Positions 1-58,651 are shown, numbered from the stretch's first letter. The stretch is DNA of 64,000 nt from Moniliella sp. 'wahieum' (GCA_003971905.1 RSEE01000054.1:124001-188000), one strand, 5' to 3'. The notes: a model not told the origin generated them from the letters alone. A program made the numbers and translations.

Positions 1-1384
1 CCCGCCTGAACGATCATCAGTTAAACATGGACCTCTAGCGGGACTGTCACTGTTACCGAAGGATCGCTACTCTCAGCTGTGCTGTTACATGTTCATGTTA
101 TTTGGACTAAAATCAGTGGCCATTTTTCGTGTATTTGTATGGAGTGCGCGATCCTTGGTGTCACGGGCGGGCGCCGCCAGGGGGCCCGCCCTGGGGTTTT
201 TGGGGTACAATCCCTTAGGCGACGGTAGGTCGACTCCGGTAGTTTCGGGCTTAGGCTGGTTGGTGTGCCCGAGCGGACCTAGGGACGAGGAGAGGCCTTT
301 GGTGGGGCGGCTGCACGTGTGGCAAGGCTGCGTCTGCACCGGCTTGGGCCGTAGTAACGTGTCTGAAGCCTCCGGGACTTAGGGACGGGAGGAGGCAGCG
401 GCGGACAAACACTGCCTTAACTGGGACTGGGAATCGCCGTGACCGAAGGAGGGCTCGCGCGATTGGACTGACGAAGGGCTGGAGGACGAGGTCGGAGGAG
501 ATGTCGGACGCTAACAAGAGGAGCTGCCTGTACTGGATCAATTGGCTGGAAACGGGCAAGAGTCGGACAGGATAGGCGGGAAAGGGACGAAATGGAGGGT
601 GGAGGAAAAAATCCCCCACCAACCGGGGGTACAGGCTTAATCAAAAAAGGGGAAAACAGACACAAAGGGGGTGTAGAAAGAAAGGCACGTCAAAAGAGGG
701 GTTGATCGCCGCAGGCGCGATCGAGAAAGGAAAAAAGTGGTGACGGGCGACGGACGTCGCAAAGATACTGAATACAGTTGGTGGTCTCGTTTTGACCACC
801 GACTTGGACTTGGGCGGGAGGCGACTGCTGTCGCGCGTACGCATGGCAACTCGGACCACCGTACTTAATTTAGCCAACCATCATCACACTTGGTTGGCCT
901 GCGGTGCACGCTCTATGGGCATGTGCGGAGCAGGCGGGCCTTAGCTTGGGTCGGACCATCTCGTGTCCGCCGCAGCCCGTGACACTCCCAGACGATGATC
1001 GATGAACGCCACAGTCTGCGTTGAAGGCTGTTCAAAACTCATTATGTATGATGGACCTTGCCTTACTACTATCACCGCCGCCACCACCACCACAGCCACC
1101 ACCATCACAGCCACCACCATCACCTCGACCTTTGCGGATCCACTCCGGGTCCAACAACCCCGCACTCCGCAGCCCATTCTGGATTTATTATGTTCATCCC
1201 ACAATACCACCGTCTCCCTGTGTGTTCTCTCTACACTCACTCTCAGAGAGCAAGGATACCATATTCCTTCCTCTTTCGTACCCCTCTATCTCTGCTTCAC
1301 TGCTCGTCTGCCAATTCATCTCCATAATGTGAGTTCCACACCTCGGTCGCATAACCCGCGATGTTCTTGGTAGGGAAACTGACT

Positions 1385-4010: not shown

Positions 4011-7000
4011 TCAAGCTTTCTCTCCTCGGAGAAGGGAAGTAGACGTGGGGTAGTCGACCTCATCCCGGAAAAGGTCCAACGGGGTTGAGAAATGGGCCGG
4101 CGGGCGACGGGTTGCTAAGCCCAACCCAGCAGGCCCTTGATCGGGAAGGAGAGGCAGTGGCTTATTAGCCCTTTTCCAATCCGGGGAAAGTTGCTTGTTG
4201 CAGGGACTGGTCTCGGGAAGACTGGCTTTGGGGTCGCAAGAGGGTACCGCACTACGCCTTAACACACGCCGAGAAGGGGAGTGGGTTGGCCCCGATGGCA
4301 TGGCCGATGCCAGGTGCTCATCCTGGGAATGAAGCCGGTGAGGAGCGAGGAACGAGGTTTTGGATGGAAAGGGATGAGTCTCAGGGCCGGTGAGATCAAC
4401 CGAGCCGATGCCAGCCGGGGACGATGGAGCAGGAGCCGAAGGAGAAGCAGACCATCCTGCGGCCTTACCTCCTCTCTGGAAATGGGGCATAGCGGCTAAA
4501 ACGGGGGAGGTGCCGAACATCGTGGTCGATGTTGGAGTACTCAAACCCGTTGATTGCGAGGTACGCGAGCCGGATGCATGTGAACCTGAATAGGACATTA
4601 ACGCAGAGGTGTACTCTGTGGCTGAACCACGAAATGAGAAGCACCACTTGAAGATGTGTTGTTTGGGACGTGACGATCGGACCACAAGGAGCATTTCGGC
4701 TCGTGTTCCCCATCCAATGAAGGCGTCGTTGTGAGCGGCGATGATAGGATAGCTCCATCTCCCGCCATGCTAGACTGATGGGATAGCATAGTGGATTGGG
4801 TTAAACTTGACCGATAGCTCCAGCCATCGCCCGAGACCGAGGGTCGGAATGACCGAGGGGAGGCAGGCGTGCTGGAGCATGTGCTGCCGCTGCGATGGTT
4901 CAACGCTTCCAGCCCACCCAGAGACTCATACTTCTGGAGATCTCCATGCGAATGGGGGATATCAGAGGGCGAGTCTTGATCAAAAGACAGGCCAAGAGCA
5001 GTAAGTAGATCGTGACTAACCTGGGCCTTGAGCGTACGACCCGCCGGCATACGCGCGGTAACCACACTTTCTACCCTTTCTTCCTCAGTAATATCTGATG
5101 GGCGCCCTTGCAGAGAAGGAGTTCGGACTCGGTGAGCGGGTGAAAGCATGCGGCGAACCAGACAACGCGGATTGTGCAGTGACAGTGGCGAGTGAAGAAG
5201 CAATTGATGGCGCGTGTTGTAGGATTGCAGTAGAGGCTGGAGGATAGTTGAGCGACTCAGGACTGTCGTTGTACGTCGCTCCTGTGCATAGTGCGTTCTC
5301 TTTCTCGGGCTTGATGCTTGGTGTAAAGATCTGGGTAGGGATCAGGCAGGGGGGGAGGCCCTCAGACCATCGCTCGAATGCGCGGGCCACTTTCGAGCAC
5401 CTGCGGAGGGGTTTGAGGGGCAGATGCGAAGCGGATGTTCGGTATTTCTGAATGAGCTCTGCAGAGCCCTTAGTTCCTTGGCTTGAACCGCAGGTTTGGT
5501 CCAACGGCCATTCTGAAGACGGCCCATCCCAGTCAAGATGAGGCCAATAGGTTGACCACGACTCGTTGAAACGAGAACTTTCACCGAGCGGGCGGCTATG
5601 GGCCGCTGAGGCGAGACTGGTGGAGAGGTGAATCCTGAGCCTTCTGCCGGTTGGCTCGAAGAGGATTGGATCCAGCCTCATGCCTGATCCGTGGAAGTAG
5701 GGGGGGACGGCAGGAAGTATTCTAAACCTTGCACTGAAGCAGAGGGTCCGAGATTCGAAGGGGCCAAGGGAAAGTCGCCATTACTGGGGTCACAGGTATA
5801 TTCTGGTTTTGAGAAATACCAAGGGGCACAACTTTGTGTCCTCGCTGTGCCCTCGCTGAAGCCGACACCGTCTCGGCGTGCTGGCTCCCTTGCGCGCTGC
5901 GCATGTGGGCGCGGCCAAAACAAGTCCGGCATACCCTTTGTCCCTGGGAAGGCATGATCAGCTGAAATAGCCCCATCCTTGTGGGGTACAGGGGGAGGGG
6001 GCAAGTTCTCATTGCCTCCCGTGAGCCGGAATAGCTCGTCCGTTTCATGCGTAGCACCCGGTTGGAGCACCGGGGACGAGCATACAGGTGAGGAGAATTC
6101 AGCCGTGCGAGGACTTGGGGATAGCCACAAGCCCAAGCCTGATGTATGAGACCCCGCAGTCATGGTCGCGCCCGAGGGGAACCGATTTAATAGGGGTCGC
6201 AACGATCGTTTCACTGCACTATTACCACGTTGGGCTTGGGGTTGAACTGGTTTTACACCCCCTCATTTGACCATGTTGGCGTGAAGGTCGAAGGCGACAA
6301 TGGAGCAGCTGCCGAGGGGTGTGGTGATGATTTGGAGGTTCAGGGAGTAGTAGTACGTTCATAGGGCCACTAGATCCCGCGGGGCTGGCAGGTTCCGAGC
6401 GAGTCCGAACAAAAGAGCGAGCAGCCCACGGTGCCAGAGAGGGGCGCGAAGTCGTGGCAGTCCGGGGCGATGAAATGGAGCTCCAGCCACGGCGAGACGC
6501 CACTCCAGGTGAAATGGATAGATCGTCGGACTTCCGTATCGGACTGGGGGCCAGTTGAGCCGAAGGACCGAGAAAATGAAGATCCAAAGGAGGTTGATCC
6601 CCGGAAAGCATCCTCGGCGTCGCCGGCATGGTCTTGCCGCTGTTTGGTACGAGGTCAAAGTATGATCCAGCAGACGGATCGGGCGTACGTGCCGTAGCCA
6701 TGCCATTGCCGCACTCGACATTGGAGTGGAGGGTGTTATCCTTGATTCGGTTTGAACCGTAACAGTTTCGACTCCATGGTGGTCAGAGTCGTTGACTTGA
6801 GCCGCAACTTCCCGCATTGCGGTCTGTGCACGTATCAGCGTCTTGCCTACTCGATTTGCCCTGGGCGTTGACAGTTTCGAAGTGCGCTTTATCATCTCCT
6901 ACAAGTGAGAGAGGTCAGTATCCCATAGGGAGGTGGAAGGAACAGAGATACGTACGTCAAGGAGCAATGGGTACTGGCAAATCCGCTGGACAGGTTTAAT

Positions 7001-8558
7001 CAGGAAGGCACCCAAGCTGTAGTAGGGATCCAGAAAGTACTGCTCGACGTCGGATCGTCCCAGCATGCATACTGATGCAATGGACCCTGCCCTCTTGTCG
7101 CCAAATCCAACGCGTGTGCATAGTTGGCACAAAAAGGCTTATAGATGCGCAATTCAGAGGCCATGGCAAAAACACGCGCCCAACACCATGTGCTTGTCGC
7201 TCGATCTCGTGAAGGCGGGATCGTTCCAATGGAACCTCCTGCGAGTCCCAAACAGCAGGAGACGGGCAAAGCACCTGCTCGATCTTGGTGAGTAAGCGGC
7301 GCTGGACGTCCACGATCTGGTCAAGATTGCCAAAGATAGAGTGCAGCACGTCCTGGCCCAACACATCGTACTTGGCCAGAACACGGGCGAAGCCTTGAAT
7401 CCGTTCCAGATCAGCCACGTAGTTTCGCTCAGTTGTTAAGAGCTCATGCATAACCCTTGAGAGTTGAACGGAACGCCCATCGATAGTGGAGTCAAGCGTA
7501 GCAGGCAGCGTGGTAATGCCCCGACTTTCTTCTTCTGACGAATTGTGGGTCCAAGGAGGAAGAAGTCGACCTCGAGCTTCCAATAATTCCAGCAGCCGGT
7601 CGACAGTGTTGATGACCCGGATGAAGCCATTGGTATCATCCTTGTATAGATCGGAAACGGAGAAGCACCACTCGCTCTCCCAACCTAGACCGGTTTCCCA
7701 AGTAGGAAAACGGGAGCCACTGGCGGGTGCTGATGGTGAACATGGCGGAGCACGCAAAGCCATGATGAACTTTGCAGTCAAACGTTTCGCCTGGTTGACA
7801 CTTGTACTGGTGGGCCGATCAAACGAGTCACCCGGGTCGGCCGAGGGGTTCAATGGCAATTGGCGAGCGCCCAGTGAGTTGAAGAGAAAACAAAGGGCAC
7901 TTCCGGTGCGTAGACAAGTCCAGACCTGGCCCACAACGTCATTTGAATGATCAAAGGAAAGGGACAGGGACGAGAACGAGGCCGAGTCTGACAATGAGGG
8001 CAAGCTGCCCTGCGATAGGGAAGGAGGCAGGCGAGAGAAAGTTGGTGTCGAGGGAAAAGAATAGTACTCTACAAAACCAGGAACTCGCGCAAGGCGTGCA
8101 CGAAGACGGACGCACTGCTGGAACAGGCTCAGCGCAGGAGGTGCATCGGAAGGCTGTCGCTGAGAAGAGCAACACTTGGGAGGGGACGAGAGAGCGTGGG
8201 GGTGTGGCGAGAGTGCTGGGGGTGCTGGGAGTGGGAGTGCCAGGCACTGCTGCCGATACGGCGAAGGTTGCAGCGGCCGAGGCAAGCGCAGACAGACTGA
8301 GCTTACGTGTGGATCGACGGCGTGCAAACGACTGTGTGTTGGAGGTGTTGGGTGGGTGGGACATGATGGGAAGGGCACAGCAGAAGCCGATGTCTGCTGA
8401 GCCTCAGGCGGCAAACATGAAGCGTGGGGCAGAAACGGAGAGGTGGTGGTGGGGCAGGACGGGCAGCAGGGCCAGGTGGGATAGGAATGCGGCATATGCC
8501 GGTCCCGCCGGCTGCTGCTGGTTGGATGAGCGATCGATATTCGCTGGCCATCGATCAT
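4011..8558 (-). CDS. Cdc24/Scd1-like Rho guanine nucleotide exchange factor (CDC24-type CH domain + DH domain + long disordered tail)
   Basis: CH-like VWTCLRTGSALCFLFN...FSVSDLYKDDTNGFIRVINTV; DH motifs VMHELLTTERNYVADL, IFGNLDQIVDVQRR, LGAFLIKPVQRICQYPLLL, AMREVAAQVND; intron 6899-6955 (GTACGT..CTGAC..TAG). Extent of the tail is inferred from overlapping S/P-rich ORF pieces. Confidence 0.75.
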
Positions 8559-9841
8559 GCATCATGCGTCGTGTATGTCATGCGTCGTGCCCAAACATCG
8601 CACCGCGTACATGCTGAGTGGCGACGCGGCGACATGTGACCGCTGGCCGCTGACCCATCACAGGTCGCGGGTTCAGATGCCGATCTCAGGTCTGGGGCGG
8701 CCTGAGCGGCACAGTGCACCCGTGCAGGAGGCAGAGTGTTGTGCCGTCCTGCGCCTGGGCCGAGTGTGCGGCCGGGTGCAGCGCGTCTGTGCGGCCCCAA
8801 TTTTTTTTTTAGCGGTGAAGGTGACCGCTGACGCTGCACGGCGCCGGCGACGCACAACGCGGAACGCGTAGCCTGCGCTGCTCTCCGCTGCCCTGTGCAG
8901 TCCAGCACTGCACTGCGGCTGCATTGCTCGGGAAAAATGAATCCAGCACCATGGTGCTCCAATTCCAACCACTGTGCCCTGCCGTGCCGTGCTGCTACTA
9001 TCCGCTCCAGCCCGCCCAAGCCCTGGCTGCGATTTGGCGCACTGGCCCCAAGCCGCATGATCGACAGCGGCACAAACTGGTCAGCCGGAGGGCGAGGCGC
9101 TGCACGTTGGAACTAGACCGCAGGTCCGCCGGTGATGCGCACGGGCGTTGGGGCCAGCTGCAGTCTAGGGACCAAGGGGCTAGTGCTAGTGACATTCACT
9201 ATTGAATGTGAATGTGTGACGCGTCCTCCGCAAAAGTGCTCACGCGCGCGCTCACGTGATTATGGGAGCTCGGAGCTCTGACGCGTCCACGCCCGCAATC
9301 GCGTTTCTACCCCTGAGACGCAGTACGCAACACCGACTGAATCACACTGTGCGAATAGTACGACGGATGGCAGAAGTGAAGCACCGGGCATCAAAAGGGG
9401 AGGGGTCGAGGGGAAGCTGCAAGCTAGCTGAAGCGTGGAGCCTCGGCCGTCGAGATTGGCACATAGCCGGGTAAGAATCGCAGCGGCAGCTTAAGCCAAA
9501 AGATGAGAGGGATGAGATCGATGAGATGAGATCTGAGAAGGAGCCAAGCAAAAATGGTTGTTTTGAATTCCCGTTGTATCCCATCGACTTCAGCCGCCCC
9601 CCCCCCCCCACCCCGACCAAACCCTCTCACACTACGGGAATCGATCGCCCCCCAACAACAGAGAAACTGCTATTCCTCGCACCCTGCCGGTCGGTGATCG
9701 ACCCACGGTAATAACACAAACTATAGGAAACGGCACAGAAAAAAGGGTGACGGCATGTACTTCAGATCGATGAGTGTCAATGTTCTCCCACAGAGAAAAA
9801 TGATACGAAATGGTCCCTCAAAATAACACACAAGCACACGG

Positions 9842-10337
9842 TGAAAGATTGGGGGCTAGGGCGAAGCACTAGACTAGGCGATCAATGGGTGAGCGCGATG
9901 AATCGGTCACACCAATGAGAGCCCAGAACCGCGGTTGTCCGTTAACTGAGAAGTAGCTACGCTACCAAGCTAAGGACGATTGCACTGTGCAGGGTGGGAA
10001 CAGTCAGAGATAGCTTCTTGTAAGCTCCTGACGCTAGTCCAACCTTCAATGCAACCGCTGGACAAGGACAAGCGCCAGAAGCAGGAAGAGAACAGGAAGA
10101 GAGAGAACAGGAAGCTCACTGTGCAGGGTGGGAACAGTCAGAGATAGCTTCTTGTAAGCTCCTGACGCTAGTCCAACCTTCAATGCAACAGGGAGAAGAG
10201 GAAGGAGGGGAACGGGCGCGACGGTAACCAATCCGGAGCGCGCGAGTTGCGGAACTCTATAGCCAGTTCCGCTTGCCAGCGACATGGCCGATCCAGCCAT
10301 CACACCAAGTGGTGCCACATGCCACCACACTCCAACA
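9842..10337 (-). repeat. 3' LTR
   Basis: Near-identical to 13094-13587; preceded by the polypurine tract on the minus strand. Confidence 0.95.
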
Positions 10338-10825
10338 CCCCCCCTCGGCCATGGCACTGGTAAACAACACCAGAGAGAAGATAGACGAGGCGCGAAAAAA
10401 AAGAGGGAGAAGAAAAAAAACGAATCGAACAAAATAACGACGATAGAGCTTGAAGCGCGCAACGTCGAATCCTTGTAGATAAAGTTGAGATAAATATAGC
10501 CAAAAGAGAGAAAGAACCGAGACAGCACCAGGCTCTGAACGAACATGGATCTGCGCATTAGAGCCGAGCCGGAAATCAGAAGAAAATAAAAGACGAGACG
10601 AAGGTAGATCAAGACGAGTGGTGGATGGTCAATGAACGTGGAGCACATGTGCACCTTCACACCAGCCGCCTGGAAGCAAGCCCCGACGAATATGACGGAT
10701 GGCAGGGCGTGCACGCCAGTACGCCGCCTTGGCGGCACAGGACCCCCCCTTGGCAGTAAGGTACCCCCCCACGGCAGCAAGGTGCCCCCCTTGGGAGCTT
10801 GGCACCCCCCCTGAATAGCACGGTA

Positions 10826-11044
10826 CTTGGCAGTTACTGCTTCCATTGGCTCCGTCGGAGGAGCGAATCCCTGCCGCAGACGGCTGTTGTTGACCAGCAT
10901 CTTCGCAGCGCCACTGTCAAATGTGAACAATGCTGGGATGCAGGCACCACATGACTGAATATTGGGTGCGCGCTCAGGTCGCTTAGTGAGCAGGCTGCTC
11001 AGCTGGACGTTCAGGTGAACTTCCAGGCGACCCCGCGCGTGTCC
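10826..11044 (-). pseudogene. Truncated Copia-type aspartic protease (start of pol)
   Basis: LFTFDSGAAKMLVNNSRLRQGFAPPTEPMEAVTA resembles the Copia PR pattern DSGA..HM.....F..........V..A; similarity stops after VTA. Confidence 0.65.
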
Positions 11045-12978
11045 CTATCCAGAGGGAGCCTCTTCAGCAGACACCATTCCATCAGCCCCCGATGTATCTC
11101 GGCCTGCATCGTCAACAGGGACCGGCCGCGCCCCTGCCTGCAAAGATGCACGGGGGTGCCCCAGTACCCGGCGCAGTCAGATCCTTTGTGTTGTTCCCTT
11201 GGCCAGGGGCATCCGTGGCACAGTCACGTTCAAAGTGTCCACGCCCGCCGCACCGCCAACAAAGGGCTGACGCCTTGTCCACACGCAAGATCGAGATCCC
11301 ATCATTGGGCGCAGTTGCCCCGACCCGCATCGCTTCGTATTGCCGTGCCAGCAGCGCACTCGATTCCATGTCTAGGCGGTCGTCTGCAAGCTTGTTCACA
11401 TCCCACCATAGCGTATTCATGGCCTGCATCGACTGGCGGTGATCTCCAGCGCGGTACACCATTTCTTGGTAATGGGGGTGTAGAGTTGCTGCCTTGAAAA
11501 AATCTCTGAGGGCGTCATGGAACAGGTCGGGGGTCCAGTTGCAATCCCTGAGGACATTGTACTCTAGGACGAGCTGGTACCACCGAGCCAAAGCCGCCGA
11601 AGCTGTATCGCGCAATGGATTCCAGCGAGCGGCCAGGCGATTGGTGATGGTGCCTGTATTAGCCGATGTAGTCCGCGCTAGCCGCAAAAGGGTAGCAATG
11701 ACCTGGTGCGGTTCATGCATGAGCATGTTGCTGTCATAGGCTTGGAGACGCGCATCAGTTTCCGCCGTGAGAGTGGTAAGGATCAGCATAAAAACCTTCT
11801 CCTTAAAACCATTGTCCACAGCAACCGCGTTGCCACATATGATAGGCCAAACACCATGTACGCCCGACGTGCGGAGTTCGAGACAGCGAAGCCAAGCAAC
11901 CGCATTTCCAGCTTGGAGATCGAGCAAGACATAGGCTGTGCCCATGCCTGAAACGCCGTTCTGTGCCTTAGTATACGCCTTGATAAGATCGTTCACGCTC
12001 GGATATAGTCCTTGTCACCTACCGTTATAGGTTGGGTGCATTCACTCGACTGATATGCCCAGCACGGTGTTGTATCACCTTGGAAAGGGGGTGCAACTTG
12101 GCAGGCTTGCGGCGCGCCCCATCAAAGGGGGTAAACGAACGAGGTTTGCTCGGGGGGGCAGCCGGCGGCAACGAGTCCCGGGGCATGGAGGGCCCCCGTG
12201 GGCTGGCGGACACAGTGGGCAGCCGGGTCACGGGAAGAGAGCGATCGGAACTGCCGATCTCAGCCTCTTCGGGCATCTCTTCAACCACAACAGAGTGCGA
12301 CCGGCGGATGTTGACTCGAGTTTCCACGTGAGGAGCAGGAAGTGCCACTCAGAGCGGCACGAGGTGAATGCAGCAGCCGCATCCCGGTCCAAATCTGCCC
12401 AAGTCAGGCCGTCGCGTTGTGCCTTGTAGAGGGGCGAGTCTTGGGGGACGCCGAGCTTGACAAAGTCGAAAATAGGACGCACGGGATCCATAATAGGAAC
12501 ATAGTCGGCGTCGTCAAACGTAAAGCGATCTAGGCGATAGTAGGCCCGCCATGCAGCATTGACATCGGGGCCGCGAAGGACACTCACCAGTAGGGAAAGC
12601 TGGGTCTTCAGACCATTCAGGGTGTCCTTGCGGCGAGTCGTAGCCAGGAGTTTTGCAAGAGAACAGCTCCTCTGCCGTGATACGATTTGGTGCAGCTCGT
12701 CAACGCAGTACTGAACAAGATCGGCCACCTCGCATTCGAAACCGTCATCTGGCACAGGCGAGCCTGCCTTCGGCTTGCCAACCTCGTCCCAGCGTGCAAT
12801 TTCTTCAACCACCGCATCGCCGTAGGAGAGTGCGGGAGGGCCATAAGAACACGTTGGTAATCGTCGTCGTGGTGACCTTTGCGCATGAACGTGAACTGCG
12901 GCCAGACCATCATGGGAGGAGCCTGAGCAGTCGAGGCCGGCAGACCACCTGATTGTCGGCTTCGTTGTCGCTATTCAT
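11045..12978 (-). CDS. gag: Retrotransposon Gag with CCHC zinc knuckle (frameshifted)
   Basis: ORF pieces 12617-12913, 12228-12812, 12025-12348, 11112-11996; CWRCGGRGHFERDC = CX2CX4HX4C; first ATG after the PBS at 12978. Confidence 0.8.
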
Positions 12979-13082
12979 ATTGGGAGAGTCAAAGAGTAGG
13001 GTGGGAGGGTGGGAAGAGCAGAAAAAAGATACCGAGAAAGGGAAGCGTGAAGCGCTTCAGTCTTGAAGCGGCCAAGACGCTC

Positions 13083-13093
13083 GGTAGCTACCA
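13083..13093 (-). promoter_or_regulatory. Primer-binding site (likely initiator tRNA-Met)
   Basis: TGGTAGCTACC directly after the LTR-terminal CA; TGGTAGC is complementary to the GCUACCA 3' end of eukaryotic tRNAi-Met, as in Ty1. Confidence 0.75.
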
Positions 13094-13587
13094 TGAAAGA
13101 TTGGGGGCTAGGGCGAAGCACTAGACTAGGCGATCAATGGGTGAGCGCGAATCGGTCACACCAATGAGAGCCCAGAACCGCGGTTGTCCGTTAACTGAGA
13201 AGTAGCTACGCTACCAAGCTAAGGACGATTGCACTGTGCAGGTGGGAACAGTCAGAGATAGCTTCTTGTAAGCTCCTGACGCTAGTCCAACCTTCAATGC
13301 AACCGCTGGACAAGGACAAGCGCCAGAAGCAGGAAGAGAACAGGAAGAGAGAGAACAGGAAGCTCACCTGTGCAGGGTGGGGAACAGTCAGAGATAGCTT
13401 CTGTAAGCTCCTGACGCTAGTCAACCTTCAATGCAACAGGGAGAAGAGGAAGGAGGGGAACGAGGGCGCGACGGTAACCAATCCGGAGCGCGCGAGTTGC
13501 GGAACTCTATAGCCAGTTCCGCTTGCCAGCGACATGGCCGATCCAGCCATCACACCAAGTGGTGCCACATGCCACCACACTCCAACA
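13094..13587 (-). repeat. 5' LTR
   Basis: Near-identical to 9842-10337; followed directly by the PBS on the minus strand. Confidence 0.95.
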
Positions 13588-14334
13588 CACGGGACCCTCT
13601 GTGATGAAGCGTCGCGTGCGCGTCCACACGTCACGCTTTGCCTTCAACGTCATATGTTTTTGTTCGTGTAGCAGAGTTTAATTGAATGTTCAGGGCCGCG
13701 GCGACACTTCGCGTTCTGCGTCCACGGTTATAGGTTTGAGACGCCTACAGTCCGGGGAAGGAAACAATCAGGGAGAGGATATATTGATTGCCATGTATTA
13801 ATTCGTGCGGCAAAGAAAAAGGAGGGAAACGGGAAACGGGGGTGGCGACGAAAAGGGAAAGAGAGGACGTCTTCTCACAGATATACTCTCTCTACTAACT
13901 GAGAGAACAGGAACTTGTTACTGAAGACTATATGCACGCGCACACGCACTGATCAGTAGTGGGATCAAGATATTTCGGTGCTCAGTGTTTTACTGCTGAG
14001 TGGTATATTTTCTTAACAACACGTACTTTGGCGCAACCCCACCCCCCGCTTTCCACAGGGGGGAAAAACCTTTAGCGTTCGTCAACCATCATTCCATCCA
14101 CCCCCACTCCTCTCCTTCTGATTTCTCCTTCGCTGTTCACCAGACGCTCCTGATACCGCGCCACCCTATAACTCTTCATCGGCTCTTCGCACTAATGAAC
14201 ACCCGGGTTTCCTGAATTCATGAAGAGAAGATCTCATGGGGAGATGAGTGGGGGAGCAAGCATTTTTGACGCAGGGCAATAATTCCTTGGGATGGACTCC
14301 CCATCCTGCATATATGTGGTACTCTTGGACGCTT

Positions 14335-23329: not shown

Positions 23330-26300
23330 AATCCTTTCCTCACGGCCCCTGCGCCACCAGCCAGCGTACCACTCCCGAATCGGGTGTGCCCCAGGCGCCT
23401 CGTCCCGTTCGGCCCTTGTTCTTCTTCTTCGTTTTCGGTAGGCAGCGCCGCAACGTCCTTCCAAATCCGTCTCGAGGAGGGGCGGGATGAGGTGCATGAT
23501 TCTGTTCCAGCCGTTGAAGCGGGGAGATTAGTACCTTGTTTTCGGCAGAGCCGCCAAGTCATCCATCTCCTCTTCGCCTTCTTGCTCTGTCTCTGTCTCT
23601 GCTCGTGCTCTTGTTCTTGTTCTTGCTCTTCTTGTTCCTCTTGGTCCCGGCGAGGCAGAGGCAGAAGGTAAGGCACGACCATGTTGGGCTTGTCCACGCC
23701 GTTTCGGCCGGCGCAGTGTCGTATCCTTCCATGCGAGGCACGCGGCTTCGCCGCGGTGCAGCAAGCTGGTCGCATACTCGGCCCGCGCTACGATCTCAGC
23801 GGGCACACCGAGCAGACGAGCGCAATGGGCCGCGTGCGACACACTGGCAAACCCGGCTGTGACTCTGGTTCCGTATCAGGCAGATCAGTACTGAGGACCC
23901 TGAGCATCGGCGTAGAAGAACAAAGGCCAAGACCTACTTGAAGAGGTACACCATCTCCTCGGGCTCATTCAGCTCGGCGCTGACCCGCCTCCGGGGGAAG
24001 AGGACCTCCATGTGCGCCGGGGTAAAGGGGAGCTGGGCAGGCCGTGTCCTGGGCGTCACGAAGAAGGAGGCCATTGAGAAAACATCGTAGTAGTGGGTCG
24101 CGATGATGGTCTTGGCGTCTGCGTGCCACGTAGAAGCACGTCCTCGGCGATCGAGGCAAAGATGGCGGCGCCATCTTGGGGCACGATTAGCATTTGACGA
24201 CGCAAGAGACACAACGAAGAAGGAGGTGCCCATACCCAATTTGTTCGTGGCTGTGCCCACCTCGTCGAGGAGGAGGAGAGAGCGAGGTGTAGCCTGGCGT
24301 AATGCGAAGGATACCTGTACCATATCGATTAGGAAGCTGCTCTGCACCGAGCCGCCGACTCGACAATGCGAATGCTTCCCAGAACTGGTCCCTGTTGTCA
24401 GTCGCAGTCTCCGGTACGACACGCAGATGGGAAACCATGGAAATCGCCATACTCTTATCGCAAATGCCCATGGTGACCGACTCCGCAGGGACAAGCAGCC
24501 GCACTGAGCCATGTACCTTGGCAGAGAGGGTTAGCACCAAAAGAGCAAACAACATCATTGAGGTGCAGCACATACACGATCAATGCGTTTTGCTTGATGT
24601 ACATGCTCTTGCCCCCACAGTTGTACCGGTTACAATCACCATACTGTTGTACTGCTTGTCTTCGTCTTCGTCTCATCTTCTTTCCCCCGCCCACCTCCTC
24701 CATGGAATCGTCGGATGTGACGGTCACCACATCCTCCCCATCGGTCCTGATGAGGGCGTTCCCCCAAAGCACAGGAGGAAGGAGTGACACCCAACCCCCC
24801 GATCAAGTCGAGGTGATTAGGGACAAACGAGTCAAGGTACTGCTCTGCCATCGGGTGACGACCTTCCAAAGGGGTCAGTTCACATTCCCTCTCTTCTTTG
24901 CTGTAAGAGAAACAAACCGTTGACGACGTGCAGCACGTTTTCCTCTACCAACTTGGGCCGCACGTAATTGTGATCGCGCGCCACCACGGCAAAGGAAATC
25001 AAGCTGCAGCACAGAGTTGTAGCGCATACTCTTTTGATCAGACGGGGAGGACAAGGGATGAGGGCGTGCGTACCAGTCCAATTGGGCAATGCCTGAGCTG
25101 CCTGAAGAAGCTTGTGTTGACGTTGTACCACCTGGTTGTGCAACTCTTCAAGAATCTCTACCTCACGATCCGTGATGGCATTGGAGGTCGCCAACCTAGG
25201 AAACGGGTATGGTCAGTCACATCAAGCTTCAAAGCCCTGCCATTTACACAGTCTGTCCACTGGGAAGTACTCACATGCTCATCCATCTCCTCCATTTCTC
25301 GTGCTTGTGGGCAACTGTCAACTCGGACTCGTGCAGAAACAAAGGGGAGAAACAGAGAGGGTGGACATACACTTATAAAATACTTCCACGTTGCTTGTGA
25401 ACGTAAACCGGAGCCCATCAATCTCAGGGAGCGTGTCCATGTCGGTTGCAACGTCCGAACCATCATCCATCTCGCCGCTGCAATCGAACCCAGTTCCGCA
25501 GCTCTTGGATCGGGAGGGAGATAAAGTACCCCAGCTGGGGAAAATTTGGACTTGCATCCTTTCCCCACGGTCCGTCATACATCATGGTCAATCTCTACCA
25601 ACACCATTTTCCCTCAGATCCCCACCCTGTATTATAGGAATCGACATACACCTCAGCAAACTCATCGATCACCTTGTCCCGCAACCGAGCAGCCACCGAG
25701 GCGAGCAACTCGGGCAAGTCCTCGAACGCTTCACGGAGGTTATCTAAGTCCTGGTCGGTACCCCCACGGATTACCACGTTTCGCTCCTGCGCGCTAACAG
25801 AGACGATCGTAGGGGGAATGGTCAGCAAGGCAAAAGATCTTTGTGGAAACAACTGATGCAGGCTTTTACCTTTCGGTCCAATCGATCACGTTGAGCAGCC
25901 GCTCCAGTGTGTGTAAGGGTACTGGGTCAATCGAAGCATGCAACTGGGAATCTGCACCGTCAGAAACACGCCATGGGATCAAGACACTGATTGGACTAAA
26001 GGGACCCACCGACAAGCAAGGGCGCCTGAGAAACAAAGGTGGCCAAAGTACAATGCGCTTCCATGGCCACGGTGCAGAACTTGTGTACTTTTTTCCACGT
26101 GGACAGAGACACGTTTCCCTCGGCTAAGCTCCCCGTCAAGAGCGAAGGCAGAGCGGCCAACGCCGCCAGCTGCGTCCGCAGCAGCTGCACCTCATCCCGC
26201 CCACGCAGCCCCGCCAAGACCTCAACTGCATCCAGACGCGCGTGATCAGCGCCGCGTCCGTGGATGGAAAGGCGAGCCAGCGGCGCAAGAGACTCCGGCC

Positions 26301-28204: not shown

Positions 28205-31120
28205 TTATGCGTTCAAAGCAGGCGAGGCGGAGGGTTGGGCGGCGGTAGCTAGCTGCAGTTGGGGTTCAGTGCCTTCACCCGAGGGAAGGATGAGTTCCCT
28301 TCGGAGTCCTCTGCGAGGGGGAGGGCGTCTTCCGGGTCGGCGGCCGCGGCAGCCTCGACGGCACTGGCCAATCGAGGTGGAAGAGCGGGGTGAGATCGTT
28401 GTCCCAGACAATGGGGACTTGGACTTCGCCCTCGTCCTCGTCCTCTTCGTCCTCCTCGATGTCGCGCGGGAGTTGAGCAATGGCATCCGCGTCGGTGTGG
28501 GCAGGGTCGGAGGCCAGGTCGGCCTCGAGATCGGCCTGCTTCCTCTGGGCGGCCGATAACTTAGGTACTCGTCGTCCGAGTACTGGTCCCCATCGAGGTG
28601 GAACAGGCTCGAGTCGGGGGGTGGGCGCTGGTTGGCCCGTCGGAAGGCACGGTCGCGCAGGGCCATGATCCGTGCAATGCCCTTTTTGCGTCGCCGGTCT
28701 TCATCCGCGCGTCGTTGTGGCTCTTCTGCCAGCGCGACCGGCGTCGCATTGGGCACGACGGGAGCCACCTCGACCACGTGCTTGCGGGCCATGCCCGTGC
28801 CAAAGCCGCCGGCCAAGAGAGCGCGGCGAATCCAGGGGGACAAAATGTTGGCAAAGTGAAACTCAATGGGCGCGTCGGCGTAGATCTCGACGGTCCTTCG
28901 TACGTCGACCAAGGCCTGAATGGAGGTGGTATCCACATTGCCCACACACGAAAAGTCAAACACAAACGCGCGTAGCAACGGGCGCGAATCGGCCGGGGTA
29001 TCCGTCCGGTTTTCCTCGGCAATCTTCTGATCAATCTCGGCCTTTTGTGTCCAGTGAGGAATCCGGTCGCACGACGCAGCCAAGGCTGCATCGGGCCCGG
29101 GTTATTCCACGGACGGTCGGAACGGGACGCATAGTTGGGCGGTTTGCCAGGACGGGTTAGCAGCTTGGCCCGCTCAATCAGCCCATCCGAAAGGTGAGAA
29201 GCGTTAGGGTAGAGGTACGCTTCTTCGAAGCGGTACACCAGGACACCGGGTGGAGGGGGCTCGACATGCACCGACGGGTCCCGCAACGCATCCTTCGAAT
29301 CCAGCGGAACAAACACAACTCGTTCATCGGGACGGCCACCATCGTGCGAAGAGCGCCGCGAACGGTACGACCACGCCCCGGAACCAGTGACGGTGGTGCG
29401 AGAGCGGGTAAAGGCCGACCGGTTGTCGCCGTGGGAAACACGCACCATGCCGAGCCAGCGGCCGCGAGGACGGGCAATTCGGATCAAGAGCAGCGCTGCC
29501 GAAGCAGCAACCGAAGTGTACACACCATTGTCCACCGAGGTGAAGACGGTAACATGACCATGACCGAGGCGAACCAGATGACCAACTCGAGTGGGCTCAT
29601 GAGCCAGTAGCGGTACAGCGTGGCCGGGGACGTGATCAGGTCGCCAACGGCATGGATGATGACGGCACTCAGGGCCGCATTGGGAATCCACTGCATCACG
29701 CCCGTCAGACCGTAGATGGCAATCAGAACCCCAATGCCCGTGATCCAGCCAGCGACGGGCGTCTTGACACCCGACTTTGCCTTGATGGCCGAGCGGCTGA
29801 AACTGCCCGTGGCAGCGTACGCACCAAAGAAGGGACTAAACACATTGGTGACACCAATGGCGATCAGCTCTTGGGAAGGCACAACAGTGTAGTTGTTGAT
29901 GCGACCAAAGGATTTGGCAATCGAAATGTGTTCGAGGAGGAGAACAATGATCGACACGGGGAGCTTGCTTCCAAGTTTGCCCAAGAGGCGGTGTCCAGGT
30001 TGGGCTTGCCCATATCTTTGAATCCACGAGGAATGGGCCCGAGCAGCGAGATGGGCAGTTTCTTTTCGTGGTCGTTGCCAAGCCAAATACGAGCAGCAAC
30101 GAGGAGAACAATGATCACAAAGGCATTCCGAAGGATGGTGCAGAAAAAGGAGAAGCGGGCCATGTGGGGGTAACGGGTGGGGCCACTTGAAGAACCAACG
30201 GATAAAGTACAGCATGAACAAGGCTGGCAGGCCAAACGCTGCGTCCAAAGTGGTGTCACCCAAATGTTTGAGCGTCTCGATTACGATACGGTAGCACGGA
30301 AGCCTATTGGTGGACAGCTGAGATGCCCATCAGCTTGGGCACCTGCCCAATGCCAATGGTCAGAGCTGAGCCCGTCATAAATCCGGCAATAGCGGTACTG
30401 GGGATATAGTCGATGATCCACCCGAGGCGGCACACCGAGGCCGAGGGTGACCACGCCGCAGATGAAGGCAAGAGCCGAGGCAATCTCCTGCGGCGACCAT
30501 TCATCGGTTTGGTGCAGTACATGCTGGATAACAGAGTGAGTTTCGAGCGACATGACAGCAACGGGGCCAATGGTCACATCCTTGGCCGTAGCAAAGAGGG
30601 CGTAGATCATGACTCCGACAAACGAGGTGTAAAGACCGAATTGGGACTCGAGGCCAGCCACGGCGGCGTAACTGACACTTTGGGGGACGAGGACAAGGCA
30701 GACAGTGATGCCGGCAATCATGTCGCCGGTGAACCAGTTCAAGTTGTACGAGCCAAGCCAGTGGCGAATAGGAAAGAGTGAGTCGAGATATTCGGTCGCC
30801 TGAAAGAAAAGTCAGCAATGTGAGGAGGAGGAAACAGAACGACTGCGTTACACACCATCGCGCCGGGGTTAGAAAAAACATCGCGGAACCAGTCGTTGAC
30901 AGAGACGGTCTGGACGCCGAGGCGGTGGTACTCGAGACCGTCGTAGTCGACGATTTTCTTGCCAACCTTGAGGGCGGCGTCGCGCAGGCGGCGGGAGCGA
31001 CTGGAGGGCGCGTCGGCGGGTGGAGCAGCAGCGAAGTGGCGCTGGCGCGCCTCCTGCTGGACGCGGGGACGTCTGCGTCTGCGTATGCGTCTCCGCGAAT
31101 CCCTTGGACTCGAGCGACAT
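28205..31120 (-). CDS. Sulfate permease, SulP/SLC26 family, with STAS domain
   Basis: GDMIAGITVCLVLVPQSVSYA, FGLYTSFVGVMIYALFATAKDVTIGPVAVMSL, LLEHISIAKSFGRINNY, ATGSFSRSAIKAKSGV, FDFSCVGNVDTTSIQALVD; short intron near 30800-30853. Confidence 0.93.
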
Positions 31121-43535: not shown

Positions 43536-43581
43536 CTCCAATCAATCATTCGAATCATCGACGCATCGATCAGCCGGCGGG

Positions 43582-45230
43582 CTACGGCCCCTTGAGGCTC
43601 GTCCGCCCCGCCGGAGGATGGTGTCGGTGGCGAGGATCTGGGTGGCAATCACGCTTGCCGCATGCAGCAGGTTGCGTTTGACGCGGTAGTTGTCCCACAC
43701 GCCCAGCGCCGCCATGTCCGCCGGCTCGCCCGTCGCCACGTCCAGGCCAATCGTCGGGGTGGCGAACAGGTCCTGCTCTTCCGCCGCCGCCGCCGCCTCG
43801 TCCTCGAGTGCGACGAGCGTGTCCAGCTGCTCCAGCCCCGAATTGACGGCGAGCGTCTTGGGCGTGACCAGCAGGCCTCGGCAAAGGCAGTGACGCCGAG
43901 CTTGGCCTTGCCCTTGGCCTTCTTGGTGGCCACGTGCCGCAGGTAGCGCGCCGCGCCCACCTCGAACGCGCCGCCGCCCGGGATGAGCGCCTTGTCCTCG
44001 ATTGCATTCTTGGTCGCACGCAGGCCGTCGCGCAGGGCATCCTGGATTTGCTGGGTGGTGTGCGCGTTGGGGGCGCGGATGAGCAGGGTGACACTCTTGG
44101 GGTGCTCCACTTTTTCTACAAACGTAAACTTCTCCTCGCCCAGCGTTTGCTCGTAGACCAGACCCGCGTAGCCCAGCACTTCTGGCTTCAAGTCATCCAC
44201 CGAGTTCTGCGCCTCGCCGCCGCAGGCGAGCTGGAGACGTTCCATGTTGCGCCGCTTGGCGCGGCGGAGGGCGAGGATGCCGTCCTTGGCGAGCATGTCG
44301 AGCGAGAGCGGGTCAATGCCCTTTTGGTTAAAGATGACAAAGTTCTTCTTGGGAGCCGACGGGTCCGCCTTGGCCGGCTCGTCGCACACGGCGCGCTTAA
44401 ACTCAATAATCTTGCGCACCTTGGCATCCACAAACCGCCGCTCGCTTTCCACCAGCTTCTCGCGCTGCTCGGCCGAGGAGTAAAAGAAGCCCGAGTTGAC
44501 CTCCGTCTTCTCGTACTCGAGACTGACATTGAGCGTCAACACGTATGCGTTTTCCACCCGGCGCGGCATGTCGGCGTGGCGCGCGCCATGGTCCAGGACC
44601 AGGCCGCGGACCAACTGGGTGTCCGTCTCAGACTTGTGCACATCTTGAGAATCTCAACCATGTGCAGATCAATCGGTTCGTTCTCCTGCTTAATGGCCAA
44701 CACCGCATCCACCACGTCGGCAGCGAGTTGCTTGGCCAGCTTGCCACGCAGCTTGGTCCCCAACGACGTTTGCGCCACACTCACCAGCGTGGCCCGGTCC
44801 ATCGTCGGCACCACCCGCACCTTTTCCAGGTACTCCAGTACTGCCGTTTGGCTACATCGTACCCTTCGCTCAGGACGCGCGGGTGCAGCCGGTCGTCGGT
44901 CACGTACCGTTCCGCTTGCTTCAGCAGCTCGCCCACCAACAACACCACCGACGTCGTCCCGTCGCCGCACGTTTCGTCCTGCGCCACCGCCGCCTTGGCG
45001 ATCATGGCTGCAGTCGGGTTCTGGATCTGCATCTCGGTCAAGAGCACCTTGCCGTCCTTGGTCATCTTGAGGTTACCACTGCCATCCACCAGCAACTTGA
45101 TCGTCCCGCGGGGGCCCAGGTTGGAGCGCACCACGTTCGCCAGCCCCACGGCACCGGCAATGTTGACCTGCAGCGCCTGCTCGCGGCGCACGGCCTCCGC
45201 ACGGGGGTTGATCATCTCCAGCGCACTCAT
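43582..45230 (-). CDS. CCT6: T-complex protein 1 subunit zeta
   Basis: [82 protein letters not shown]. Confidence 0.97.
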
Positions 45231-45643
45231 CTTGAACGGGTGCTTCCAGCGACAAGGGAGAGGAGCAAGAGCTAGGGCAGGAAGCGGCGATGGAGGGGTG
45301 GCGCACCAAAAGAAGACAACGCGTCCCACGCTCGGCGGGCCTCGCGGGAGGGGGCGCGCGGAATGCTAGCGGGAAGAAAGCGGTCGAAGCGCAGCGCAGC
45401 GCCAGTCTCGGTCCTGCTCTCAGTCAAACTTTCATTTTCCATGGCCCCGCCACCTCCTTGCGGACGTATTTATTACCCTCTCGGAGTCAGTAGTCCGCCT
45501 GGCGAGCAGCGCCACATCTTCCTGCCGAGGTGGCCATCGCATCTGCACTAATAAGAGCAACACACTATACACCAGGCCACCTTCCACACACACATCCTAG
45601 CAGAACCGTCACATCCTCATCATCACAATAGGGCAACGACAGG

Positions 45644-50213: not shown

Positions 50214-53200
50214 ATGCCCCCGCCCCCCCCCACGCTGTGGCAGCTCAGCCGGGAGGAACAGCCGCTGCGCCCCGCCGCAGCAACGCCCCGCCGCTCCAAC
50301 AAGCCGGCCGAGCAGCCACCCGACGCACACGACCCCCACTTCCACCAGCGCCTGTGGGAGGCCCAGTACCGCGCCGCACATGCCCCTGAGCGTGCCTTGA
50401 TTGCGCGCGCACGCCACCCGCCCGCCTCGGGCCTCCGCCGCCCAGCACCCGCCCCAGTGCCTGCTCCATCCGCCTCAACCTCAACCTCAGCATCAACAGC
50501 AACCTCGCCATCAACCTCAACATCAACCTCACCATCCGCATCCGCACCCGCATCGCCCTCGTCCGACACCCCGCCCGCTCCGTGCCCCCCTCCTCCCCCG
50601 CCACCCCCACTCGTCCCCGCCGCACCCAAACGCTGAGGCCAGCCGGCACCCCGTCGGCCTCGGCCGCACCCACCAGCGTCCCTCATCCCCCCGCCCCCAC
50701 ACTTCCCGCGCCCTCGTCGTCTCCGTCCACGATGTCGCCCTCCGCCTTGTCCCGCCGCACATCGCCCACGCACAAGAGTGACGCAATGGGGGAGGCACCG
50801 CGCCCGCTGCCGCCAAGCTGGCGCAGGAACAAGCAGACGCACCTGACGACGCCTTCCTTGCCCTCGCTCACCACCTCTCTGCTCCGCCCCACTCCGTCTA
50901 AGGGGGTGCACACCGCCCCTTCTTCCCCCAGTCGGAGTGTCCCGACGTTGACTCCGATCCACTCCTCCTCCACTCACTCTACCTCGAACCTTCGGCCCGG
51001 AGCACGTTGCCGCCCACACCCCGCATTGGCACCCCCGCCAGCACAGCACGCTCCCCTTGGTCGTCGGGGCTGCTGGAAGAGGAGGGAAGCTACACGAGCG
51101 AAGGCTCGGCGTACTCGGACCTGGACTCGTCCGACTCCGAGTCAGACATGGACACGGGCAGTCCAACGGTGCGTTGGTCGGCGTACCAGGCGCAGATCGA
51201 ACATCGTCTCGTCGATGATGACCGCCACCACGGCCCTGATGGTGAGAGGGAGGTGGGGGATGTGGTGCTGCATGGCCCAGCGGGCGGCGTCGCTTCCTCC
51301 CCCCCGTCCCCGAGTACGACACGGGCGGTATATCCGGCCAGGAAAGCAAGATTACCTGGGCTCCACGCAAACCTGCCCCTCCCGTTCCGTTGTTCCGGGC
51401 GAGGGGAGGCGGAGGAGACCGGGGAGGACGAGGTGGTGGGCAGTGCCAGTTCGCTGGTGGTGCATGCGCGCTTTGCCGTGTTTGCCGTGTCGGGTCCGAC
51501 GGTGCTCACGGCCCACAACCATAAAGTCAAAATCTTGCGTGCTGGGACGGTGCGTGCCGAAGTGGCCGGTCTGAGCGAGCCCACTCGGTTGGCTAGTACC
51601 CCCACCAGCGCGGCTGGCAGTACAGCCAGTCTTGCCAACGCTCCCGAGAAGGTAGCTACGATCCAAGACCCGGACCTTGTGCTGCAGGGACGTGTGACGG
51701 CGCTGTGCTTCCTACGGCCTACGGGGACGGAGGAAAGCGCTCGGTATGCATGGGTGGGCACGACGAGCGGGATGCTGTGGGAGCTGGATGTGGTCAATGA
51801 GGTGCGCACTGCGCTCAACCGTGGGTGCACAATGTGGCGATTGTCCGCATCTCCCGCTTGGGCGACCGCATCCTGGTTGTGGACGAGAGAGGCAAAATGT
51901 CCATCTGGTCGCCCTGGCGAGCCAACGCAGACAATTCGGCTAGCGCCCCACCGCGCTCTTCGTTGGGATTGGGAGACAAAACAGCGTCTGCCCGGGGTAG
52001 CACCGAACAGACGCAGGATAAAGAGGAGGCAGCCAGCCTCCCATCCTCCCGCCTCTCTGGCGGACTGACGGACAAGCTGTCTGCCGAGAAGAGTTCATCG
52101 GACCCTTCCACCCGCATGCTCACCACCACCCCTGTCATCCAGAAGTTTCCCGTCGAGGGGAAACACGTTGTGCCGCTGCTGGTGGGCGATCAGTTGTGGG
52201 TGGCAACGGGCGGGGCGACGTTGGGTACCTACCATGCGTCGGAGCCTGGCAGTACGGCACAAGGATCGGGTCACCGCCACAAACATTCCCTCCACCGCTC
52301 CATCCGTAAAAGTTTGCGCCGTGCGGCCGACCTCGCGTTTCATGGCGCGGGAGATCACACGCCTGCCTTTACCCCCAACCTGCGCGACATTCGCCTGCAG
52401 ATCTTCACGCCCCTTGCCAGTGCCGATGACGACCCGAGCAAGGCGCTGTCGGTACCTCCCCTCTTGCCTTCTATCGTGGCGGGGGATGATCGGTCCAGCC
52501 ACGGCGGCAGCCACGGTGCCCTGCTCCCCTGCCACCGTCTTCATCTCGCACACGACAGGCCATGTAAGTTCGCCTGTCCCTTGGCCCTTTTTGTCTCTGT
52601 CTCCTGTCTCCTGTCTCCTGCAGGTCCTTTATCCCTGACTTTTTCCATAAGACGCCCTACTGACTGGCCCACCTCCAGATCTCCGAATGGTCCCGCACGT
52701 CGTACCAGTGTGTGCGGTACACCAGAACGCATTGGATGCGATCCTGTGTATGACGGCTGCCGGACGGTACCTCTGGGCCGGGACAAAGGGAGGCAAGATC
52801 TTGGTATTTGGCCTGGCGGAGCAGAAGAGCGCGCGCCAGCATGCCGGTTGGTGGTGGTCAAATCCTGGGTGGCGCATGGCGGCAACCCCGTTACGCGACT
52901 CGTGACGGACCCCGATGGCATTGCGCTGGGTCGACTGCAGGTCGTGAGCGGCGGGATGGACGGGGCGGTGAGGGTATGGGATGGGCTCTTGACGCACGAT
53001 TGGTTTGAGCGTCGCATTGGCCGCTCCTTGCCGCACGTAGCTACCTCGCGCACCATCCGCACGCTCCATGTGACGTACAATGTCGATGCGGCCGATCCGC
53101 TGCTTCTCCAAAGTCCCAAGGGCAAAACGGAGAACCGGGAATTTCTACAGGACCTTCTTCGAAGTGCTGGACACGCGCCGCCGGTAACGATGACGACGCG

Positions 53201-57412: not shown

Positions 57413-57535
57413 CAACCAACGCAGCAGCCGCGTCGACGGGAGGAGAGGAGGCGGTGGTGGTGGTGGTGGCCAGCAAAATTCTTCCGCCCTCGACGTCGCC
57501 GAGCAGCGGAGAGAAAGAATGATCGATGGCTTCGA

Positions 57536-57542
57536 TGACTCA
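57536..57542 (+). promoter_or_regulatory. Gcn4/CPC-1-type element TGACTCA upstream of CysRS
   Basis: Exact consensus ~124 bp upstream of the first ATG; CCAAT and TCACGTGAC within the next 30 bp. Confidence 0.55.
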
Positions 57543-57676: not shown

Positions 57677-58651
57677 ATGCCGCCGCCTGTTCCTGGACTC
57701 GCCTCGCCGCTTCGTGTGCGGGCGCATGTGTCCTCCACCGCGTCCGCCTCGGCCCCTCCCCCGTACCCCCGCCAGCGGCCGTGCCCCTTTCGGGCACGGG
57801 GCGGCAAGGAGAGCCGGTGCGCATCTATCGCTATGCCGTCGATGCGCACGGCCAACTTTTTCTGCACGACACGCCGGTCAAGAACATGGCGGTAAGGTAA
57901 CCGGATCGCGCTTCGTCTTCACCCCGCTTGCTATATTCTTGCCTGGGCACAGCCCCTTTGCTGTTGCTTCTCGCTGACCCGGCCCCGCTGTTGGCAGACG
58001 TGCTACAAGGACCTAGCCTTTCTTGATTTTTTCTTTGTCCGAATCAAGCCCAACCCGTACCCGGCGGCATCTCTGTCGGAATTGGTCGAAACGCTGGGCT
58101 GTGCGGACGAGGAGCCCGGCCAGGATGGCATCCCGGCATGGGACCGTCACGACTGGCCCGAGCAACTGGTATCGCACAGCTCCCCTAGTGCGACCAAGGC
58201 CGAGGTGGAGCAGCGTGCGGCGCAGATAGCCCAGCGTGCCGGGTACAGGTACCTGAGCCCCTGCATGGGCGAGCTGAACTTTGTCCGTCCCACTGAGCCG
58301 ACGGAACGGCGGTGGTGTACCGCGACTGGTTCCTTGCCCGAAACGCCCAGTGACTTGTCGCTTTTGTGGGCAGGCCGACGATTGGAGCCGTTTGAGCCAG
58401 CGCGCTTGACCCTCCATCCTGAAACGGGACGGATCTACCACCCGTCCCCACGGCCGCTCTTGCGCGCCGGCATGCCTGTCTGTGCCCTGTCCGACTCGCT
58501 CGTCTTGCGCCACCTGGCGGACCGGTTGGAGTTGGTGGAAGAGACAGAAGACGGTCCATCTGCCGTCGCAGCCCATCTGCATTGGCAAGGAACTACCTAC
58601 CCCATCTCTGCCTTCACCCCAGCGTCCCAATCAGACGGCATAGCACTGTGA
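57677..58651 (+). CDS. C8orf82/UPF0598 (DUF4505)-like protein
   Basis: RIYRYAVDAHGQLFLHDTPVKNMA|TCYKDLAFLDFFFVRIKPN, YLSPCMGELNFVR, FEPARLTLHPETGRIYHP; intron about 57892-57998. Start uncertain. Confidence 0.8.

Follow-up and report, generated by a model that had tools for sequence, protein, structure and literature searches.

A candidate UAG readthrough signal at the gag-protease boundary of an LTR retrotransposon from Moniliella

The minus strand of a 64,000-nucleotide (nt) stretch of DNA from Moniliella sp. 'wahieum' (GCA_003971905.1 RSEE01000054.1:124001-188000; the window, numbered from its first letter) carries a long terminal repeat (LTR) retrotransposon with a TAG codon between its gag-like frame and a protease motif. 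We hypothesize that this TAG is a genuine in-frame UAG at the gag-protease boundary and that it is bypassed by structure-assisted readthrough resembling that of murine leukaemia virus (MuLV), classed as type III. This is the reading we favour, although we give it somewhat less than an even chance. The observation of the TAG, of the predicted fold behind it and of the protease motif is confirmed; its interpretation as readthrough is plausible, modestly favoured and unproven.

In the model that we propose, the gag gene of an LTR-retrotransposon family would genuinely terminate at the TAG, with the protease following in the same frame and, in autonomous copies, pol following in frame behind the protease. 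Most ribosomes would stop at the TAG and release Gag; a minority would insert an amino acid at the UAG and continue into Gag-Pro(-Pol). This event may be promoted by the G that follows the stop together with a three-way RNA junction 5-6 nt downstream, which would sit at the mRNA entrance of the ribosome when the UAG occupies the A site. The copy in the window would be a young, non-autonomous deletion derivative of 3.75 kb that retains the gag-protease junction, and the apparent +1 offset between the gag and TAG frames would be an assembly indel error somewhere in 11176-11115. The arrangement of the sequence, the predicted fold with its stability, the anatomy of the element and the indel errors of the assembly are observed; an in-frame position of the TAG in the actual DNA, a pol behind it in the family and a stimulation of readthrough by the structure are inferred.

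Stop codon, protease motif and predicted fold

In what follows, frame A is the frame of gag, frame B that of the TAG and the protease motif, and frame C the third frame of the minus strand. Three features make up the candidate signal:

11045..11047, minus strand: TAG, the sole frame B stop between 11177 and 10046; next base G
10907..10927, minus strand: FTFDSGA, a retropepsin-type active-site motif in frame B
10968..11038, minus strand: predicted three-way junction, consisting of a basal stem and two hairpins whose loops measure 4 and 3 nt (RNAfold)

On the minus strand the sequence reads GAA GAG GCT CCC TCT GGA TAG(11047-11045) GGA CAC GCG CGG GGT CGC, which matches the letters given in the initial annotation of this DNA. 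The base after the stop (TAG GGA) is G, as in the UAG-G of type III readthrough. Frame B then has no stop from 11044 to 10046, and the downstream half of a readthrough layout is in place, as the TAG and FTFDSGA share one frame. The Asp of FTFDSGA is codon 43 past the TAG, in agreement with the 43 open codons initially counted. About 80 codons of protease-like coding lie beyond the TAG. It had also been claimed that no ATG precedes the catalytic Asp; this holds for frame B, and one ATG does occur out of frame, at 10952-10950, the single one between the two points. Because an in-frame ATG is absent there, the protease cannot start on an AUG of its own.

The class of motif is rare. The window's 127,996 six-frame residues contain the pattern D[ST]G[AS] 7 times, and with three preceding hydrophobic residues only twice, FTFDSGA being one of the two. 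By our own arithmetic, the probability of a chance match no more than about 100 codons away from the end of gag is about 0.5-1.6%, so that such a coincidence is unlikely. For this reason the protease is taken to follow the TAG.

The initial annotation had proposed a compact three-way junction over 11038-10968. RNAfold reproduced it and added one C-G pair, which leaves a spacer of 5-6 nt between the TAG and the fold. The 88 nt from the TAG onwards reach -42.6 kcal/mol (z -4.7) and the 71-nt core at 11038-10968 reaches -36.4 kcal/mol (z -3.7), and in neither case was any of 200 dinucleotide shuffles as stable. The junction was retained when 301 nt of context were folded. Compared with the rest of the window, 9 of 5812 windows of 88 nt (step 22, GC-corrected) were equally extreme. 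We rate as fairer a test with 80-nt windows, which takes the sequence straight after the TAG; here 148 of 15,980 windows (0.93%; step 8, both strands) were equally extreme, and these form 82 loci. Of these 82 loci, the fold behind the TAG is the sole one to lie in the interior of the element in sense orientation. Judged by these predictions, the fold is notable but not exceptional, and less exceptional in its window than the shuffles imply.

The structure is not the pseudoknot, about 8 nt after the stop, that type III readthrough would lead one to expect. It is a three-way junction whose loops, at 4 and 3 nt, leave no room for a second pseudoknot stem. A scan of 9700-13700 against Rfam at E<=1 gave no matches.

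Strong folds occur elsewhere in the window as well. The strongest GC-corrected 80-nt folds lie at 24921-25008 (minus strand), 81-240 (plus strand), 51969-52112 (minus strand) and 58393-58472 (minus strand), with residuals from -18 to -22 kcal/mol, all exceeding that of the fold behind the TAG.

The element and the reliability of its reading frames

The TAG is embedded in a complete LTR element of 3.75 kb with an interior of 2.75 kb, flanked by a target-site duplication. In the order of the minus strand its parts are:

13592-13588: target-site duplication CCGTG, 5 bp, before the 5' LTR (read directly)
13094..13587, minus strand: 5' LTR, TG...CA (self-BLAST, repeat finder, LTR alignment)
13076..13093, minus strand: stretch resembling a primer-binding site (PBS), starting TGG, directly after the 5' LTR (read directly)
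12231..12974, minus strand: upstream open frame of 248 codons in gag's frame, without family or relatives in the searches given below
11115..12014, minus strand: gag-like open frame, frame A, 300 codons, ending at TGA 11114-11112
11261-11217, minus strand: CCHC zinc knuckle in the gag-like frame (zf-CCHC, E 2.3e-4, 21.6 bits against a cut-off of 20.8)
10718..10820, minus strand: four to five tandem repeats of ~21 nt that include G7 runs, at the end of the protease-like coding
10338..10346, minus strand: polypurine tract GAGGGGGGG, abutting the 3' LTR (read directly)
9842..10337, minus strand: 3' LTR (self-BLAST, repeat finder, LTR alignment)
9841-9837: target-site duplication CCGTG after the 3' LTR (read directly)

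Direct LTRs with TG...CA ends, the target-site duplication, the PBS-like site and the polypurine tract mark it as an LTR retrotransposon. A pyrimidine-rich tail closes the interior. The tRNA scan of the window found no genes, hence none to compare with the PBS-like stretch, and self-BLAST found no second copy of the element in the window. Neither in the 2.75-kb interior nor elsewhere in the window is there a reverse transcriptase (RT), an RNase H or an integrase. Because a CCHC gag and a DSGA motif are present without these three, the sequence identifies the element, in our reading, as a non-autonomous, internally deleted derivative. The tandem units of ~21 nt are probably the site or a by-product of the internal deletion.

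The two LTRs show no substitutions in 491 aligned columns. This implies a very recent insertion and makes it unlikely that the TAG arose by decay afterwards. Each LTR also contains an internal tandem duplication of ~134 bp (9983-10189 and 13232-13437), whose 73-nt cores are 93-100% identical.

The 248-codon frame between the PBS-like site and gag shares the frame of gag, with stops intervening before gag is reached. It matched no Pfam family at E<=1, and of 880 protein candidates none reached E<=0.01. Assembly errors could have detached it from the N-terminal end of Gag; alternatively, it could be an independent upstream open reading frame.

The relatives of gag say little about classification. 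A word-indexed search against longer proteins produced 6442 candidates, none at E<=0.001. Exhaustive phmmer gave 14 matches at E<=0.001, of which 12 have their best stretch within the knuckle zone (residues 221-293). P0014, one of the two matches outside that zone, is a tetratricopeptide repeat (TPR) protein. The sole relative that matches the gag body beyond the knuckle is P0006, weakly, with 25% identity over 125 residues; it carries a Ty3_capsid domain (E 5.6e-8 in P0006 itself). Pfam contains no copia gag family matching the element at E<=1, and the copia domain order, integrase before RT, is unreadable here as pol is absent. The label 'Copia-like', under which the element had first been described, thus finds no support: there is no RT or integrase, no copia gag family, and the one weak relative has a Ty3_capsid domain. 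An AlphaFold2 model of gag made without an alignment was unusable (mean predicted local distance difference test score 36.7). The nearest clusters in the ESM Atlas are Basidiomycota proteins, one of them with zf-CCHC in 33% of its members, which we treat as a lead only. Against metagenome contigs, the gag protein gave 51 pattern matches with none confirmed, and a 32-nt piece of the hairpins gave no matches. The genes of the window are eukaryotic (CDC24/RhoGEF, cactin, CCT).

The initial annotation had conceded that the CCHC-bearing gag frame ends at TGA 11112 and that the TAG lies in another frame. This is correct, and one assembly indel had been assumed to bridge the gap. Two kinds of evidence make such an error very plausible. 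Firstly, the LTR alignment contains 7 indel events (10 gap columns) next to its substitution-free columns; we read these differences as assembly errors, because true divergence would consist mostly of substitutions. Secondly, three housekeeping genes contain 6 frame breaks with no gap in either the DNA or the Pfam profile positions, which excludes introns as the cause:

43545-45365, minus strand: CCT/TCP-1 gene, 3 frame breaks, at about 44840, 44637 and 43877
55287-57539, minus strand: cysteinyl-tRNA synthetase (CysRS), 1 frame break, at about 56007
29487-30811, minus strand: sulfate permease, 2 frame breaks, at about 30433 and 30297-30318

Four of the six are mended by adding one base and two by removing one. 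For example, 30318-30297 offers 22 nt for 7 profile positions, and 44637-44636 offers 2 nt for one. The break at about 44637, one of two inspected base by base, lies outside a homopolymer. For the housekeeping genes this amounts to an indel rate of ~1 per 580 nt, and for the LTRs the rate is as high as 1 per 142 nt. The reading frames of the window are not reliable at face value.

The CDC24-like RhoGEF gene at 6902-8561 (minus strand), 1.3 kb from the 3' LTR, has its RhoGEF domain matched only in pieces (profile positions 1-65 and 128-149); more frame errors are the probable reason.

Between gag and the protease the three frames are arranged as follows. Frame A, with the CCHC knuckle, terminates at TGA 11114-11112. 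Frame B has no stop over 11176-11048, meets the TAG, and is open again through FTFDSGA. Frame C is open over 11223-11014, that is, for 70 codons spanning the TAG. The zone in which A and B are both open is short:

11115..11176, minus strand: 62 nt with frames A and B both open, containing runs G4, C5 and G4

Gag can be joined to the protease in several ways. On the first, from A to B, one surplus base in 11176-11115, or two missing bases upstream of the TAG, would suffice, and the TAG is in frame. The sign of error needed for a single surplus base was seen in 2 of the 6 housekeeping breaks. On the second path, from A through C to B, one base is missing at each step, the second within 11044-11014, and the TAG is out of frame. 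If the step from A to C is a real -1 frameshift, the missing base in 11044-11014 is the sole error needed. A +1 frameshift from gag into the frame of the TAG was considered and rejected, as it would not spare the ribosome the TAG ahead of the protease. The offset between gag and the TAG frame is most likely an assembly artefact, but the TAG could equally be out of frame.

Readthrough against its alternatives

For the weighing we used rough prior values of our own, setting in-frame stops at a few percent and treating single-frame or -1 arrangements as common. Considered on the frame pattern and the indel rates alone, three readings come out about equally likely. The balance is tipped towards readthrough because the one strong fold of the interior starts 5-6 nt past a UAG-G stop. 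Such a position of the fold, together with UAG-G, is expected under readthrough; otherwise it would have about a 1-3% chance.

Several observations weigh against the readthrough reading. It is built on a single copy, truncated and without pol. In the assembled sequence, TGA 11114-11112 closes gag and the TAG is in the +1 frame. The indel rate that could bring the TAG into frame could equally leave it out: with a single base lost from 11044-11014, where a G4 run lies, frame C would continue into the protease frame. A codon log-odds model (506 training codons) cannot separate B from C near the TAG, and the profile of GC content at third codon positions does not separate them around the TAG either. 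The region after the TAG matches no protease family in Pfam, even at E<=10; its residues 1-80, compared with longer proteins, gave 25 candidates and none at E<=0.1. As for the fold, comparably stable windows occur ~1 per 1.6 kb per strand (the 82 loci mentioned above), and the reverse strand is equally foldable (-43.8 kcal/mol), so that the fold bears no RNA-specific mark. The spacer of 5-6 nt is shorter than the 7-12 nt of the documented stem-loop cases (PMC3159437; this and the other papers cited here by PMC number are drawn on in excerpt). Finally, the stop of the Candida albicans element Tca2, together with its predicted 3' pseudoknot, gave no readthrough in a yeast reporter (PMC2194720).

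The alternative that survives best is an uninterrupted gag-pro(-pol) frame disguised by assembly errors. Two bases would be missing, one at the step from A to C (11223-11115) and one at the step from C to B (11044-11014); the TAG would never have been in the coding frame, and the fold would be incidental. Indel errors are indeed frequent here, and four of the six breaks in host genes are a single missing base, the very sign that is needed twice. Frame C runs open across the TAG, a G4 run lies inside the 30-nt window of the second error, and over 10 codons in 11044-11014 the codon model prefers C to B (5.4 against 0.2 bits), a difference that is not significant. A single gag-pol frame is also common among LTR elements (PMC5580714). 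However, this explanation requires two errors, the second confined to 30 nt that make up perfectly paired 5' stem arms, and it leaves to chance that a fold from the 0.93% tail stands right behind the TAG. We consider it unlikely.

Programmed -1 frameshifting would economize on errors, as one suffices. Gag would truly end at TGA 11112, pol would start in frame C, and a missing base in 11044-11014 would hide the continuity of C with the protease. The geometry is classic, with the -1 frame open from 11223 and overlapping gag by 108 nt, and -1 frameshifting is usual in many fungal Ty3/gypsy elements (PMC10085805, PMC3441728). A slippery heptamer of the form X XXY YYZ is nevertheless absent from all frames in 11240-11000, which weighs against frameshifting, and the stable fold, 75 nt past the gag stop, is too distant for a slip site located within the overlap. 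This possibility seems to us somewhat less probable than an uninterrupted frame.

A slightly fainter possibility again is that the in-frame UAG is real and the fold is not its stimulator, protease and pol being reached by some other non-canonical bypass. Such a bypass was proposed for Tca2 after the failure of its stop region in the yeast reporter (PMC2194720), and the lack of strand-specific pairs in the fold and the short spacer of the Moniliella element would agree with it. Against this, no in-frame AUG precedes the catalytic Asp, and the placement of the fold fits known stimulators better than chance.

That the TAG is a disabling nonsense mutation in a defective, trans-mobilised lineage without programmed recoding is very improbable: the copy is non-autonomous and has lost pol, hence there is no selection on its gag-pro junction, yet its LTRs have 0 substitutions, its gag is open for 300 codons, and a lone nonsense codon would have to fall by coincidence at the gag-protease boundary, just before a G and the interior's only strong fold.

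Known readthrough systems and significance

If structure-assisted readthrough does operate in the Moniliella element, its closest counterpart is MuLV. Type III readthrough combines UAG-G with a compact 3' structure, in MuLV a pseudoknot 8 nt after the UAG (PMC3159437). The element resembles MuLV in having UAG-G at the gag-protease boundary, a compact 3' structure nearby and the catalytic Asp a few dozen codons further on. It differs in its predicted three-way junction (loops of 4 and 3 nt) in place of an H-type pseudoknot, in a spacer of 5-6 nt against 8, in its fungus-like host and in the putative status of its frame.

Structures other than pseudoknots are known to act on stop codons. Stems 7-12 nt past the stop stimulate readthrough in alphaviruses, in several plant viruses and in Drosophila kelch (PMC3159437). 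With these systems, among them tobra-, furo- and pomoviruses, the element shares a non-pseudoknot helix a few nt past the stop (PMC3159437). The extended stem-loop systems, however, mostly have UGA-CGG or UGA-CUA as stop context, a spacer of 7-12 nt and long loops, about 100-270 nt in size (PMC3159437), whereas the element has UAG-G with a compact fold of 71 nt.

In-frame gag-pol stops are rare among LTR retrotransposons (PMC10085805, PMC3441728, PMC5580714). Tca2 and VdLTRE5 of Verticillium dahliae are LTR retrotransposons of fungi in which an in-frame stop separates gag from pol (PMC2194720, PMC3441728), as it would in the family of the element. Both are Ty1/copia elements with UGA; the element has UAG, and its membership in copia is unsupported. 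For Tca2, with its predicted 3' pseudoknot, it was the junction alone that gave no readthrough in Saccharomyces cerevisiae (PMC2194720). The fission-yeast Ty3/gypsy elements Tj1, Tosmo1-3 and Tcry1 likewise have gag, stop and pol in one frame, and in Tj1 the in-frame stop is essential for transposition (PMC10085805). Their stop is TGA within a conserved 8-nt context, GAA-TGA-CT (PMC10085805), in contrast to the UAG-G and fold of the element; the excerpts of PMC10085805 report no 3' structure for them. All fungal in-frame gag stops that we found in the literature are thus UGA: Tca2, VdLTRE5, Tj1, Tosmo1-3 and Tcry1 (PMC2194720, PMC3441728, PMC10085805). No UAG-type gag-pol stop in fungi turned up in our literature search, whose scope did not include the survey of Gao et al. 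2003.

We therefore suggest, with a little more reserve than for readthrough as such, that an LTR family of a probably basidiomycete fungus has arrived convergently at type III readthrough of UAG-G by means of a three-way junction, and that this may be the first fungal retroelement case that is of the UAG type and assisted by structure. It would differ from the known kinds in using UAG rather than UGA, a three-way junction rather than a pseudoknot, and a short spacer. The practical lesson is that frames in this assembly are untrustworthy, so that claims of recoding require accurate reads first. If our reading is true, the element would provide a tractable fungal model for structure-stimulated readthrough. 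It would further widen the range of stimulator shapes to the three-way junction and represent a convergence of retroviruses and fungal retroelements.

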